A stretch of 64,000 nt of DNA from a virus. Its lineage: Duplodnaviria > Caudoviricetes. The notes beneath the pieces were generated by a model. That model saw nothing but the letters and a program-made list of their open reading frames with translations. It did no database searches and was not told the origin of the DNA. The stretch covers positions 58,560 through 122,559 of IMG/VR virus record IMGVR_UViG_3300031760_000010; one strand, given 5' to 3'. The translations under genes and the position numbers were made by a program. Positions 5,272 through 59,973 of the stretch are shown here, one piece after another (within the stretch, counting starts at the first letter, position 1; each line of letters starts with the position of its first letter).

Positions 5272-6525
5272 ATGGATGTATTACTGCAGAAAATGTTTTT
5301 GGAACCAGAGAGATGGACCGAAGCGATTGAAATTGGTGTTGGTAAAAACATCAGCAAAACAGAAATGAGACAGTTATGTGATCCTGAAGTACGGAAAGCA
5401 TTGTTGTACAAGATTGCAACAGATCAGTACAGAATTGCTCCACCGCATACAGCACAGATTCCAAAGGATACACCGGGTGAATTCAGAACGGTTTATATCA
5501 ATGAAAACATTGATCGAATCTTTCTGAGTCTGGTGAACAATCTTCTGTTTGAGATGTTCCCGGAGATGATTCATCCTGCTTGTACGTCTTATCAGAAGGG
5601 CATCGGTTGCGGCAAGGTAGTGCAGAGTATCTCTAAAGAGATACAGAAAGGGAACGGAACAGTCGGATTCAAATCAGATCTGAGTAAATACTTTGATTCA
5701 GTCCCGCTGAAATGGATTGATTATGTCTTCGATCAGATCGAAACGAAAGTCGGGAAGAGCATAATCATTGATATTATCCGTGATTATTATCATACGGACT
5801 GGTGCTTTGACATTGAAGGGAATTTGATTCAGCATTATCAGTCATTGAAACAGGGCTGTGCTGTAGCGAGTTTTCTTGCGGATGCCATGTTATATGACAT
5901 GGATGAGCGGTTAAGTAAACTAAAAGGGAAGTATGTACGATACAGTGATGACTGTTTATATGTTGGATCTGATTATGAAGATGCAATGCGGATAATGAAA
6001 GCAATGTTAGCAGAGAAAGGACTGACATTGAATCCGAAGAAAGTAGAGTACATTGATGGAAATCGTTATGTCAAATTCCTTGGTTTCAGCATTTGCGGAG
6101 GAAATATCAGTCTCAGTAAGAGCCGAGTAAAGACATTCCAGAAAGAAATTGAAAAGCGAACCATCAAAAGCAAACGGTCGTATAAAGCAGCTGTAAATGC
6201 AGTCAATCAGTATCTGTATGGTGGAGAATACAGTTGGGCAACATCTGTATTACCAATCATCAATGTAGAGGAAGACATACAGGAACTGAACAAGTTCGTT
6301 ATGGACGCATTGAGAGCTGTGCAGACAGGGAAAAAGAAGATAGGAGGTCTTGGCTATGTTCCTGATGGTAAAGTAGGCGTGATCAGTCGTGGAACTGGCC
6401 GCAACGTAAAAGCGAATCGTATGAAAACAGCTAAAGAAATTAGTGGGTATCATACGATTAATGAAATGCGGCTGGCTTTAATGACTTCAAGGGAAGTGTT
6501 TGATACTCTGGTAAGAATGATGTAA
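5272..6525 (+). CDS. Reverse transcriptase (stand-alone, unknown-group-like; not group II intron, DGR or classical retron)
   Basis: IPKxxxGEFRTV, FKSDLSKYFDSV, LKQGCAVASFLAD, YVRYSDD and KFLGF motifs; 417 aa; GGAGG RBS. Confidence 0.93.
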   Translation: MDVLLQKMFLEPERWTEAIEIGVGKNISKTEMRQLCDPEVRKALLYKIATDQYRIAPPHTAQIPKDTPGEFRTVYINENIDRIFLSLVNNLLFEMFPEMIHPACTSYQKGIGCGKVVQSISKEIQKGNGTVGFKSDLSKYFDSVPLKWIDYVFDQIETKVGKSIIIDIIRDYYHTDWCFDIEGNLIQHYQSLKQGCAVASFLADAMLYDMDERLSKLKGKYVRYSDDCLYVGSDYEDAMRIMKAMLAEKGLTLNPKKVEYIDGNRYVKFLGFSICGGNISLSKSRVKTFQKEIEKRTIKSKRSYKAAVNAVNQYLYGGEYSWATSVLPIINVEEDIQELNKFVMDALRAVQTGKKKIGGLGYVPDGKVGVISRGTGRNVKANRMKTAKEISGYHTINEMRLALMTSREVFDTLVRMM

Positions 6526-6538
6526 ACAACAAATCATT

Positions 6539-6770
6539 ATGGCAAGAATGTATGCTAGGCAAATGAAATTTAAGTCATACAGCTCCCAGCCACTTAACCT
6601 GGATCCTGCCAGGCTCGAGCTTGGCAAGTTGTCTGACGACAATGCCGGAAGCTCGAACCAGGCAGGATCCAGGTGACCATCCTGAAGTATCCTTCAGGAT
6701 TAGTCGCTGGTAGCTGTATCTCCTATGAAACAAATAAAGGAAGCCATCATGTTTGTAAGGCATACATAAA
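6539..6770 (+). ncRNA. RT-associated structured RNA unit 1 (branched hairpin cargo)
   Basis: acctggatcctgcc/ggcaggatccaggt (6597-6610/6661-6674), atcctgaag/cttcaggat, atacagct..agctgtat; scaffold helices atggc/gccat and atgtatgc/gcatacat. Confidence 0.75.
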
Positions 6771-6775
6771 TAATA

Positions 6776-6945
6776 GTGCAATGGAAATCAATAAGGATCT
6801 TATATTTAGTCCATGCTGGAGGCGGCCACCGGTCGTCGCCCGCAATGGACTCTATCGTTATGCGGGCGACGACCGGTGGCCGCCTCCAGCATAATGACAT
6901 GAGACAAATAGAGAGAAGCACCGCAAGATATGAGTTGGTTTCAAT
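6776..6945 (+). ncRNA. RT-associated structured RNA unit 2
   Basis: Perfect 32-bp inverted repeat 6813-6844/6861-6892; scaffold helices gtgc/gcac and gaaatcaa/ttggtttc. Confidence 0.75.
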
Positions 6946-6948
6946 CCT

Positions 6949-7120
6949 AATGGCAAGGGAAGTATGAGGAGAGGTAAACATTTATGATTACGGATCCCGG
7001 CAGCACCTGCTGCAGGCACACGTTTCATTGACATTCACGGATCCTGCAGCAGGTGCTGCCGGGATCCGTAATTGATGATACTCAGTACAGAGATGCCATT
7101 TTTACCCCGGATCATACATT
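6949..7120 (+). ncRNA. RT-associated structured RNA unit 3
   Basis: Perfect 30-bp inverted repeat 6987-7016/7043-7072; scaffold helices aatggca/tgccatt and gtatga/tcatac. Confidence 0.75.
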
Positions 7121-7143
7121 TAATAGAGTAAGGAGACAGCGAA

Positions 7144-7587
7144 ATGATTTTGTTTGATAAATTGGTCAACGAGATAGGTAAAGGTTCGTCAGTACTCATA
7201 CGACTGAAGGAAAAGGACCTAATCGTGAATGGTCAGTATTGGATTCAGAACGGTAAAGTAAACGAACCGTGTGATACACTGATGAAACACTATGCGAATA
7301 TTATGGAACTGATTGAAGATATGTATATCAGTTACAAGTATTCGTATCCCGATGAAATGGGAACCAAACGAAAGCGAAGTTATTTTAAAGCGCTTACCGC
7401 TGATGAAATGACAGATGCAGAACTGGTGACTGGTGCTAAAAGGAGGACAGCAAGAGTTCTGTTAGAAGCAACTGTATTACTTAGTACATTGAACGGAGAT
7501 CTCAAATGGAGGGATGAATGGGGATCTTGGTTCTATCAGGGAAAGAAAGATAAGGATTTCATTCTGTTAAAGGAATGGGTCGTGTAA
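7144..7587 (+). CDS. hypothetical protein, candidate RT accessory 1
   Basis: AAGGAG RBS; directly follows the RNA units. Confidence 0.7.
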   Translation: MILFDKLVNEIGKGSSVLIRLKEKDLIVNGQYWIQNGKVNEPCDTLMKHYANIMELIEDMYISYKYSYPDEMGTKRKRSYFKALTADEMTDAELVTGAKRRTARVLLEATVLLSTLNGDLKWRDEWGSWFYQGKKDKDFILLKEWVV

Positions 7588-7639: not shown

Positions 7640-8566
7640 ATGCAGAACAGAAATAATAGAATGAACACTCTGAACAACGCTGGTATCGATACTTCCAAAT
7701 ATTATAACGTGGCTATTGACAAGGCACTTCCGAAGGGAACTACGCTGACGATCACGATTGGTGAGAATGGTCTGCCTACGGTTACGACAACGGAACTGAA
7801 AGGAATGCTGGACCAGATCGACAATCAAGGATATGTAAAGAACAGCAATCTGTTCAGACGTTGGGTGATGGCTCAGACGTTCCGTATGATGAAACATGAG
7901 GGCGGCTATACCACAGCTCTGAACGAGAAGCCGTATAAGTATCAGTGGACGATGCTTGAGAATGAACTTCATGCTATGAGCAAGATCGAAAAGGAAGATA
8001 AAGAACTGTTCAAGGTACGGAAAGATTTCTTTACCAAGGAAGTGATCATTGCCATGCTTGAGGATTACAAGGCAAAGCTGAATGCCGAGTGTGAGCGCGA
8101 GTTTTGGGCGTGGGCACAGCGTAAGCGTACAGAAGGTATCGCAATTGCGAATATCACAATTGATGCAATCAAGCAGTGTACAAATTATAATGGTTACTAT
8201 CAGATTATCCGAGAGTTTAACAAGGAACTGAAGGGTGGACGAAGAGATGGTTATTATTGCCCGGATCTGACACTGAGCCGTACCACTGCCAAGTGTAAGG
8301 AATGGATCGATGCGTACAAGGGAGCGGGTGCGTATTACAGCCTGCAAAATTATCTGCGGTTCCATGCAAATACTCATGTATATCTGCCGACGAATGAGAG
8401 AGGCCGTGTTCTTTGGGCAACTCGTCTGGAGGCGGAGGGAGAACTGGAAGTCAAGAGAGAAGAATACAAGGGACAGTGGTATAAACTGTTCGGTTACTTC
8501 AAGAGAGTAATTGAACTGAATCAGTTCGATTTCGATAAAGCCATGCGTCAGAAGTATAATCGGTAA
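7640..8566 (+). CDS. hypothetical protein (FRRWVMAQ motif), candidate RT accessory 2
   Basis: AGGAG RBS; 308 aa; lies between RNA units 3 and 4. Confidence 0.75.
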   Translation: MQNRNNRMNTLNNAGIDTSKYYNVAIDKALPKGTTLTITIGENGLPTVTTTELKGMLDQIDNQGYVKNSNLFRRWVMAQTFRMMKHEGGYTTALNEKPYKYQWTMLENELHAMSKIEKEDKELFKVRKDFFTKEVIIAMLEDYKAKLNAECEREFWAWAQRKRTEGIAIANITIDAIKQCTNYNGYYQIIREFNKELKGGRRDGYYCPDLTLSRTTAKCKEWIDAYKGAGAYYSLQNYLRFHANTHVYLPTNERGRVLWATRLEAEGELEVKREEYKGQWYKLFGYFKRVIELNQFDFDKAMRQKYNR

Positions 8567-8579
8567 TAACGGAAAGGGA

Positions 8580-8722
8580 TTGCGACCCGATAATACAATA
8601 CTATAAGTTTAACATTATGATCCTGGAAGGCGGATAGCTGCGGATTATCTTCCGGCTTCCGCCTTCCAGGATCAGATTGATGAATCCATTACAGAAACGC
8701 AAAATGATAGTTGAGTATTGTC
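8580..8722 (+). ncRNA. RT-associated structured RNA unit 4
   Basis: 17-bp perfect stem 8618-8634/8658-8674; scaffold helices ttgcg/cgcaa and acaatact/agtattgt; atgaatccattacagaaacgc motif. Confidence 0.7.
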
Positions 8723-8729
8723 AAAGTCC

Positions 8730-8783
8730 TTGCCAAAGGACAATGAGCATGGTATAGTATGAACAGAAACGAACATATGTTCG
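8730..8783 (+). promoter_or_regulatory. sigma-A promoter with Gram-positive LexA/DinR SOS box
   Basis: ttgcca-N17-tatagt with extended TG; cgaacatatgttcg at 8770-8783. Confidence 0.75.
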
Positions 8784-58731: not shown

Positions 58732-59973
58732 ATGGATCAAATGAATTATGATATAAACTCTCCAGAGTTGTTGCAATACATTCCAGACTCTGTTAAAATG
58801 CAATTAGCAGATGTATGGCGAAATTGCGAAATGGCAAAAAAAGAAGAAGTGCTAAAAAGGAATAACGTCACAATTTCACCTACAAAAGATGGACAATACA
58901 CTACGCATTTTTATGTTATGGGGAGTGATGGTAAAAAGAGCAGAAAACAAATCAAGCGGAAGTCCCGTGAGGCACTGGTAGACTATGTATTTGAGTTTTA
59001 TAAAGAAGTAGAAGATAATCCAACAATCAATGATATATTTTATCAGACTCAAACAGATCGTGAAAAATACGATCATAAAGAGCCTAGTACAATATCCAGG
59101 GATGCTCGTGCATATAGAAGATATTTCACGTCATTTGGAGAAAAACATATTAAAGATGTTACTGCAATTGATATTGAACATTTTCTACGTGATACGAGAC
59201 GCCAGCTGGATTTAAACACAAGAGGCATGGATTATCTGCTACAAATCACCCGCCGTATATTAGAAGAAGCATCAGTGAACCACTATATTTCATATGATTA
59301 CGAAGTTCCGTTGAGAAATGCTAAAACATCTGCCAGACGGTCCGTTAAGCGGATTCGTAAAACAGATGAAGAAGAAGTATACTCCAGAGAAGAGATGGCA
59401 AGATTAGAAGAATATTTGAGAACCGATCCGTCCATACACGCTTTAGGAATCCGACTGATGATGCAGACCGGCATGAGGGTAGGAGAGGTAGCTGCGCTCA
59501 AGTGGGAAGATTATGATGAAATCAATCGATCTATCCATATTCAACGCACTGAAACTTTCTTCACCGACGAGCATGGTAAATACCATGTGGCAGTTTCAGA
59601 CCATCCTAAAACAGATGCTGGTAATCGTTATATACCAGTCACGGATGCAGTTCGAGAAATATTACAAGCTGTCAGAGTAAAAAATAAAACTCAAAGTGAA
59701 TATATGTTCTGCTATAAAGCTCAACGAATCAAATCAGAGAAGATTAGAAAAAAGCTGATGAGAGTTTGTCAATATGCGGGAATACCGTACAGATCTCCTC
59801 ACAAGTTTCGCAAGACATTTGCGACTATGCTTTATGTTAAAGGCACCCCGCCACAGATTATCAAAGAGATCATGGGGCATACTCGTTTTGATATTACAGA
59901 AAATGTGTATATCAAACCGTATGGGGAACTAGGGGAAAAGGCTGATGCGATGAGTCAGGCTTTGGTCTGGTAG
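58732..59973 (+). CDS. int: phage tyrosine integrase
   Basis: TGMRVGE, PKT, HKFR, MGH and VY. Confidence 0.92.
   Translation: MDQMNYDINSPELLQYIPDSVKMQLADVWRNCEMAKKEEVLKRNNVTISPTKDGQYTTHFYVMGSDGKKSRKQIKRKSREALVDYVFEFYKEVEDNPTINDIFYQTQTDREKYDHKEPSTISRDARAYRRYFTSFGEKHIKDVTAIDIEHFLRDTRRQLDLNTRGMDYLLQITRRILEEASVNHYISYDYEVPLRNAKTSARRSVKRIRKTDEEEVYSREEMARLEEYLRTDPSIHALGIRLMMQTGMRVGEVAALKWEDYDEINRSIHIQRTETFFTDEHGKYHVAVSDHPKTDAGNRYIPVTDAVREILQAVRVKNKTQSEYMFCYKAQRIKSEKIRKKLMRVCQYAGIPYRSPHKFRKTFATMLYVKGTPPQIIKEIMGHTRFDITENVYIKPYGELGEKADAMSQALVW

Follow-up and report, generated by a model that had tools for sequence, protein, structure and literature searches.

The window, that is, the whole 64,000-nucleotide stretch of phage DNA that was analysed, carries on its plus strand a reverse transcriptase (RT) gene at 5272-6525. 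The 417-residue product matches the PADLOC profile RT_UG27 over residues 4-417 (E=4.1e-198) as well as Pfam RVT_1 (E=6.6e-23), and its active site is intact, with YSDD read in the translation. Three non-coding units on the same strand occupy the interval 6526-7143. Directly downstream of the RT gene and this array lie two plus-strand accessory genes, a small one ('sORF', cluster 346, 147 aa) at 7144-7587 that is recognised by PADLOC RTas346 (E=7.1e-40) and a large one ('bORF', cluster 337, 308 aa) at 7640-8566 that is recognised by PADLOC RTas337 (E=6e-63). A fourth unit, detached from the array, is found 3' of the large accessory gene at 8576-8722. UG27 enzymes have been described as class 2 UG RTs of gut phages that occur together with clusters 346 and 337 and with a presumed non-coding RNA (ncRNA) that has three long stem-loops (Mestre et al., 2022; PMC9226505). 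Judged by its sequence, the locus is a UG27 reverse-transcriptase system of a bovine-gut phage, and the four units are its predicted template RNAs. Bovine-gut metagenome runs cover the DNA of the window almost completely; no RNA run containing the locus is among the sequencing runs listed.

The surroundings of the locus include a phage replication module (28107-59973) with a Sak4-like annealing protein, a DnaB-like helicase, a primase, a DNA polymerase, an exonuclease V/Dda-like helicase, an NAD ligase and NrdD; an integrase lies within the same region at 58732-59973. The RT gene has a counterpart in Bacteroides phage BS-TP1, where the stretch 79505-80447 of PQ571274.1 is 63.6% identical at the DNA level and is labelled 'tail protein', which is probably a misannotation. 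Bovine-gut contigs from two related runs show, at 8517-8557, a joint that goes back 41 nt with CA inserted, which means that in those strains about 43 nt close to the 3' end of the large accessory gene are duplicated in tandem.

All four units share one layout, which is read from the sequence, from minimum free energy (MFE) folds and from matches to the covariance model R2 described below. A small 5' hairpin, P0 (stem of 2-4 bp, loop of 6-8 nt), encloses element A; it is followed by the 5' strands of stems B and C, the tetranucleotide UUUA, a variable cargo hairpin, the motif AUG-N7(8)-UANAG and the 3' strands A', C' and B'. UUUA and AUG-N7(8)-UANAG are present in every unit of the window. The start AUG (at 6725, 6899, 7075 and 8680) lies 0-6 nt 3' of the cargo hairpin and 18-20 nt 5' of A', and A' begins 4 nt 3' of UANAG.

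Unit 1 (6535-6767; R2 match 6537-6770) consists of the P0 stem 6535-6538/6547-6550, A at 6539-6543, B at 6548-6555, C at 6559-6564, UUUA at 6569-6572, the cargo at 6577-6719, AUG-N7-UAAAG at 6725-6739, A' at 6743-6747, C' at 6751-6756 and B' at 6760-6767. Its P0 3' strand and stem B share 3 nt (6548-6550), so that P0 and B cannot both form at full length. Unit 2 (6773-6942; R2 match 6773-6945) has its P0 stem at 6773-6774/6781-6782, A at 6776-6779, B at 6784-6791, C at 6797-6801, UUUA at 6805-6808, a cargo hairpin of 31 bp at 6814-6891, AUG-N7-UAGAG at 6899-6913, A' at 6918-6921, C' at 6925-6929 and B' at 6935-6942; the B/B' helix (gaaatcaa 6784/ttggtttc 6935) includes one G-U pair. In Unit 3 (6946-7117; R2 match 6948-7123) the P0 stem 6946-6948/6956-6958 closes a 7-nt loop, AAUGGCA (6949-6955), that constitutes A. 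B at 6962-6967, C at 6973-6978 and UUUA at 6981-6984 precede its cargo hairpin at 6985-7074, and AUG-N8-UACAG at 7075-7090, A' at 7094-7100, C' at 7101-7106 and B' at 7112-7117 follow. The detached Unit 4 (8576-8722; R2 match 8577-8726) comprises the P0 stem 8576-8578/8586-8588 with the loop AUUGCGA, A at 8580-8584, B at 8589-8596, C at 8600-8604, UUUA at 8608-8611, a cargo hairpin at 8616-8676, AUG-N7-UACAG at 8680-8694, A' at 8698-8702, C' at 8707-8711 and B' at 8715-8722. Two registers of stem B are possible in this unit because of an AAUAC repeat: 8589-8596/8715-8722 fits the family, and 8595-8602/8714-8721, the register of the original prediction, is an alternative.

The cargo is a variable part of the units. 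In Unit 1 it is branched, with an outer stem (6577-6590/6706-6719) around a long hairpin (6597-6675) and a side hairpin (about 6680-6701). The cargo stems of Unit 2 (6814-6891) and Unit 3 (6985-7074) are near-perfect helices of 31-32 bp with a GC content of 0.56-0.68, compared with about 40% GC for the phage; those of relatives mostly consist of runs of 8-13 pairs, which makes the stems of the window unusually long and perfect. Contigs from four related bovine-gut runs leave 6786-7060 uncovered and end in or near the long hairpins of Units 2 and 3. A comparison with Rfam returned no RNA family beyond chance miRNA-like matches, which were sub-threshold and fell on the long hairpins on both strands. 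The cargo arms (6597-7018, 8619-8640) contain GGATCC (twice), CTCGAG, ACCGGT and CTGCAG. A role of the cargo as a restriction-site decoy was considered and rejected: the 5' arms in the window hold five 6-bp palindromes against 2.2 expected (P=0.066), and 134 family units show no enrichment (60 vs 59.5; P=0.49). A lone ATGAGCATGGTATAG motif at 8743, preceded by a 6-bp hairpin at 8724-8739, was tried as a fifth unit (region 8724-8760) and gave no R2 match; perhaps it is what is left of a unit that has decayed, or it matches by chance.

The original prediction had proposed that two crossing helices, A/A' and B/B', recur in the order A-B-hairpin-A'-B' in each unit. Checked against the letters of the window, all sixteen helix coordinates and sequences are correct, the order is right and A/A' crosses B/B' in all four units. 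The MFE folds recover B/B' in each unit and reveal two elements that the prediction lacked. One is a third helix, C/C', which is nested and present in all four units. The other is P0, a hairpin that abuts stem B and whose apical loop is element A (the folds of Units 3 and 4 display it). With A in the P0 loop, the contact is a pseudoknot of the kissing type, in which a hairpin loop pairs with one strand, the 3' one, of an asymmetric internal loop.

Helix A measures only 4-7 bp, and it had been conceded from the outset that such pairing could arise by chance. The window alone justifies this caution. When the 20 nt upstream of stem B were shuffled and scored against the 12 nt after UANAG, the probability of a Watson-Crick run at least as long as the observed one was 0.062, 0.081, 0.008 and 0.011 for Units 1 to 4, respectively. 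Pairing is indeed kept in all four units, as claimed, while the further claim that their sequences differ holds only in part: Units 1 and 3 both carry ATGGCA/GCCAT, cross-pair with each other and are thus not independent. Covariation within this one genome is suggestive, not decisive, and it took a family alignment to confirm it.

Related loci were retrieved with the RT (80 from IMG/VR and 29 from GTDB genomes; protein identity 57-64%). They are mostly Bacteroidota, with a few Bacillota, and the motif AT[GC]N7TANAG occurs across these 109 loci 924 times on the RT strand compared to 106 times on the opposite strand. Several routes to a unit alignment were abandoned: MFE folding of motif matches in 300-nt context paired them with neighbouring units, a simple stem finder with a best-helix search was too noisy and placed false units inside the RT gene, and MAFFT alignments were structurally inconsistent and were discarded. 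Because MAFFT failed to align the units structurally, a covariance model (R1) was built from Unit 2 with its nested helices only. Run with filters off, R1 recovered Units 3 and 4 of the window, where default filters gave Unit 2 only, and in ten loci it yielded 7 full-length units that seeded a second model, R2. A search of the window and 42 loci with R2 gave 169 matches, none of which lies on the strand opposite the RT and only one of which falls short of full length; 150 of them form the alignment A5, and 134 distinct units were used for covariation. R2, whose seeds are units of other phages, was also run on the window with filters off and matched Units 2 (116.9 bits), 4 (53.0 bits), 3 (44.8 bits) and 1 (38.8 bits) at full length; a fifth unit was not detected.

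The pseudoknot corresponds to five column pairs of A5 (4-363, 5-361, 6-360, 7-359 and 9-358, with UANAG in columns 349-353), of which Units 3 and 4 pair all five and Units 1 and 2 four. A/A' is absent from the structure of the model, and its pairing counts are thus not fitted to it. Across the 134 units, 80.8% of the cells in these columns are paired compared to 66.1 +/- 1.1% after shuffling (0/500 shuffles), a prevalence that is likely overestimated, as the model was seeded on pseudoknot-bearing units. The covariation score is 0.507 against 0.255 in shuffles (0/500), and both sides have changed in 144 cells, compared with 49.8 +/- 13.3 in shuffles (0/500). Such two-sided changes occur in each of the five pairs; column pair 6-360, for example, is A-U in 56 units, G-C in 39 and G-U in 20. 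The register is narrow: sliding one partner by 1-3 columns reduces pairing to 10-46%, and sliding by a single column to 10-17%. In an unbiased mutual information scan of all well-occupied columns, 5-361 was the top pair outside the helices of the model, and 4-363 and 6-360 were also listed.

Alignment-free comparisons point in the same direction. The 5-mer at +4 after UANAG finds an exact complement in the 5' region of its own unit in 64% of units and in that of a non-cognate one in 19%; the nested stems show up as additional maxima, C' at +11 to +15 and B' at +20 to +23. The leader of the unit itself forms a run of 5 bp or more with the 12 nt after UANAG in 88% of units, compared with 47% for non-cognate leaders. 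Complete formation of the five A/A' pairs is seen in 53% of cognate and in 17-19% of non-cognate combinations. The specificity of the pairing is real but moderate. Partial conservation of A and A' (RCAC and GUGY, respectively) accounts for the high level in shuffles. At the GC of A' that had been called invariant, the first base is G in 129 of 150 units (86%), opposite C in 135 of 150, and the second position holds T (90 units) or C (58 units) in nearly all of them; the dinucleotide is invariant within the window and not in the family. Full non-cognate pairing is as frequent within arrays (19%) as between loci (17%), which gives no support to orthogonal codes within arrays. Contigs from the four related bovine-gut runs show no difference in A/A', B/B' or C/C' among the differences listed.

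The remaining elements were examined in the same alignment. Stems B and C, to which the alignment was fitted, are paired in 90% of cases compared to 42% after shuffling. The internal loop between them is conserved in sequence, with CAAG opposite UGAG (A5 columns 34-37 and 375-379; for instance 6792-6796/6930-6934), and its closing pair, 34-379, is paired in 95%; a protein may bind at this loop, or the loop may form a tandem G-A or kink-type motif. The P0 columns 1-12 and 2-10 are paired in 67.3% of cases against 39.5% in shuffles (0/500), with all pair types occurring, and once the upstream bases are included, stem layers 1-4 reach 57-73% pairing across units compared to 19-50% when shifted. 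Taken as a whole, the covariation in the 134 distinct units that 42 related loci supplied, matched by none of 500 shuffles, bears out the conserved pseudoknot scaffold of the original prediction, which had named a lack of covariation in a larger alignment as grounds to reject it. On this comparative evidence, A/A' pairing is a real and selected feature of the RNA that is conserved in related phages.

An account of UG27 arrays appeared as the 'Minerva' preprint (bioRxiv 10.64898/2026.09.22.753630, 24 Sep 2026), and the unit architecture, including a pseudoknot, is already known from it. The preprint describes arrays of units of about 150-167 nt that carry a basal hairpin and a pseudoknot, together with a minority of units of about 135 nt without pseudoknot. 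Five loci expressed in Escherichia coli produced single-stranded DNA (ssDNA) of 50-100 nt, for which RT activity was needed in all five; deletion of either accessory ORF, performed in two systems, abolished the ssDNA, and Ec86 msDNA was recovered as a control. The cDNA starts at the AUC of AUC-N7-UANAG and stops after UUYA, with the cargo hairpin as template. The spacing of A' and AUG observed here relative to this cDNA start is consistent with the published data. The text of the preprint gives no account of priming chemistry or of what the pseudoknot does. Its 'additional hairpin at the base' is probably P0, and from the wording we infer that the published pseudoknot is exactly A/A', which fits the present findings. 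A literature search found no further paper on the topic beyond this preprint and Mestre et al. (2022).

The locus has its three proteins in common with the published systems, and likewise the tandem arrangement of units (about 150-170 nt each) on the strand of the RT gene, the gut-phage setting, UUYA and a start triplet-N7-UANAG around a variable central hairpin, the basal hairpin with the pseudoknot, and an extra unit set apart from the others in an intergenic region nearby. It differs in several respects. This bovine-gut locus lies outside the five tested systems. Its four units all have AUG, not AUC; AUG is the minority form, since of 134 family units 104 have C and 28 (21%) have G as the third base of the triplet. 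The closest relatives, L001 and L002, likewise have AUG. The cargo stems of 31-32 bp are another peculiarity, as is the branched cargo of Unit 1, whose 143 nt would give a predicted cDNA of about 150 nt compared with the published 50-100 nt. The window thus holds an ordinary member of the UG27 family with a few local peculiarities.

Retrons make a short hairpin ssDNA from a structured non-coding RNA that serves their RT as template, and the template unit is closed by inverted repeats. The UG27 units resemble this arrangement in both respects, yet the identification of the locus as a retron can be rejected. Retron RT profiles match weakly (St85, E=3.7e-12 and 46 bits, where the cutoff is 235; Ec107-like, E=4.9e-9) compared with E=4e-198 for UG27, a class 2 UG RT. 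The units are located downstream of the RT gene, whereas a retron msr-msd lies upstream with a branching G at a1/a2. UG27 units further differ in forming arrays after the RT gene, in requiring two accessory proteins and in containing a pseudoknot; to our knowledge, branching-G priming is not known for UG27. Telomerase RNA contains an internal template bounded by a helix, and a nearby pseudoknot is needed for RT activity. The likeness in template, boundary helix and pseudoknot is a functional analogy only, as there is no homology, the pseudoknot topology is another one, and telomeric repeats are made instead of hairpin cDNA. DRT2 (UG2), as described in the preprint, is likewise a class 2 UG RT; it has a structured ncRNA of its own as template, and this ncRNA includes a pseudoknot. 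According to the same text, other class 2 UG RTs including DRT2 produce long concatemeric cDNA, in the case of DRT2 from one ncRNA and encoding a hidden ORF, whereas UG27 makes short hairpin cDNAs from many units.

The explanation that best accounts for all observations, to which we assign a probability of roughly 0.8, is that the four units are UG27 template RNAs folded around a kissing-type pseudoknot that crosses stems B and C and covaries in relatives, with a putative role as a clamp. In the proposed fold, the closing stems B/B' and C/C' would stack with the CAAG/UGAG-type internal loop between them. Beyond them would open a large asymmetric loop, with UUUA on its 5' side and AUG-N7-UANAG on its 3' side, and beyond this the variable GC-rich cargo hairpin. 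A, as the loop of P0, forms 4-7 bp with A', which belongs to the 3' strand of this asymmetric loop. Pseudoknot and B/C stack may together clamp this strand and present the start triplet, AUG in this phage, to the RT complex in a fixed geometry, with the closing stems as the presumed template boundary. The pseudoknot may be dispensable for templating, because the preprint describes units of about 135 nt that lack it. A more far-reaching version makes the kissing contact an obligatory licence: the complex of RT, sORF and bORF would accept only units whose own loop is docked beside UANAG, and start nucleotide and template boundary alike would be fixed by this docking. This version is conceivable and, on balance, doubtful.

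The main rival to the clamp model holds that A/A' and P0/B/C are alternative states of the RNA, the pseudoknot gating initiation by forming, for instance, only before or after the RT complex binds. Covariation backs each helix separately and would look the same for a simultaneous pseudoknot and for alternating conformers; P0 and B of Unit 1 compete for 6548-6550, and for pairing, the P0 loop at the base of B has to reach the top of C, past about 13 bp and an internal loop. In Units 2 to 4, however, P0, A/A', B and C occupy non-overlapping nucleotides, and linkers that measure about 5-7 nt and 4-5 nt (A5 columns) might be able to span the stack, especially if CAAG/UGAG kinks the helix. A switch of this kind is considered unlikely. 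Far less credible is the notion that A and A' do not pair at all and are separately conserved protein-binding motifs, RCAC and GUGY, whose complementarity is incidental or due to chance. The short helix, the per-unit chance of 0.01-0.08 in the window and the 66% pairing of shuffled units would all be in keeping with it; the excess of two-sided changes over shuffles (144 vs 49.8 +/- 13.3; 0/500), the drop to 10-17% pairing on a single-column slide and the full formation of A/A' three times more often in cognate than in non-cognate pairs argue for base pairing. Least probable of all is a feature of the DNA, in which the short inverted repeats act in unit duplication and loss or pair within the cDNA: arrays do gain and lose units (bioRxiv 10.64898/2026.09.22.753630) and G-U outnumbers A-C by little in the cells of the pseudoknot (57 vs 36, a small excess that makes the strand test weakly informative), but both A and A' fall outside the cDNA by its ends as given there (AUC to UUYA), A' keeps a fixed offset from a motif specific to the RNA strand, and A sits in the loop of a covarying RNA hairpin.

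The published pseudoknot thus receives independent confirmation from different loci and with conventional covariation statistics, and the pairing is pinned to five column pairs that join the A loop with positions +4 to +9 after UANAG. UG27 systems are widespread in gut phages and produce families of short hairpin cDNAs. The RNA contacts that define a unit are needed to understand how these cDNAs are primed and bounded and to design synthetic templates. If docking of the loop should indeed license each unit, its 5-nt code would provide a handle by which single units of an array might be reprogrammed or silenced.
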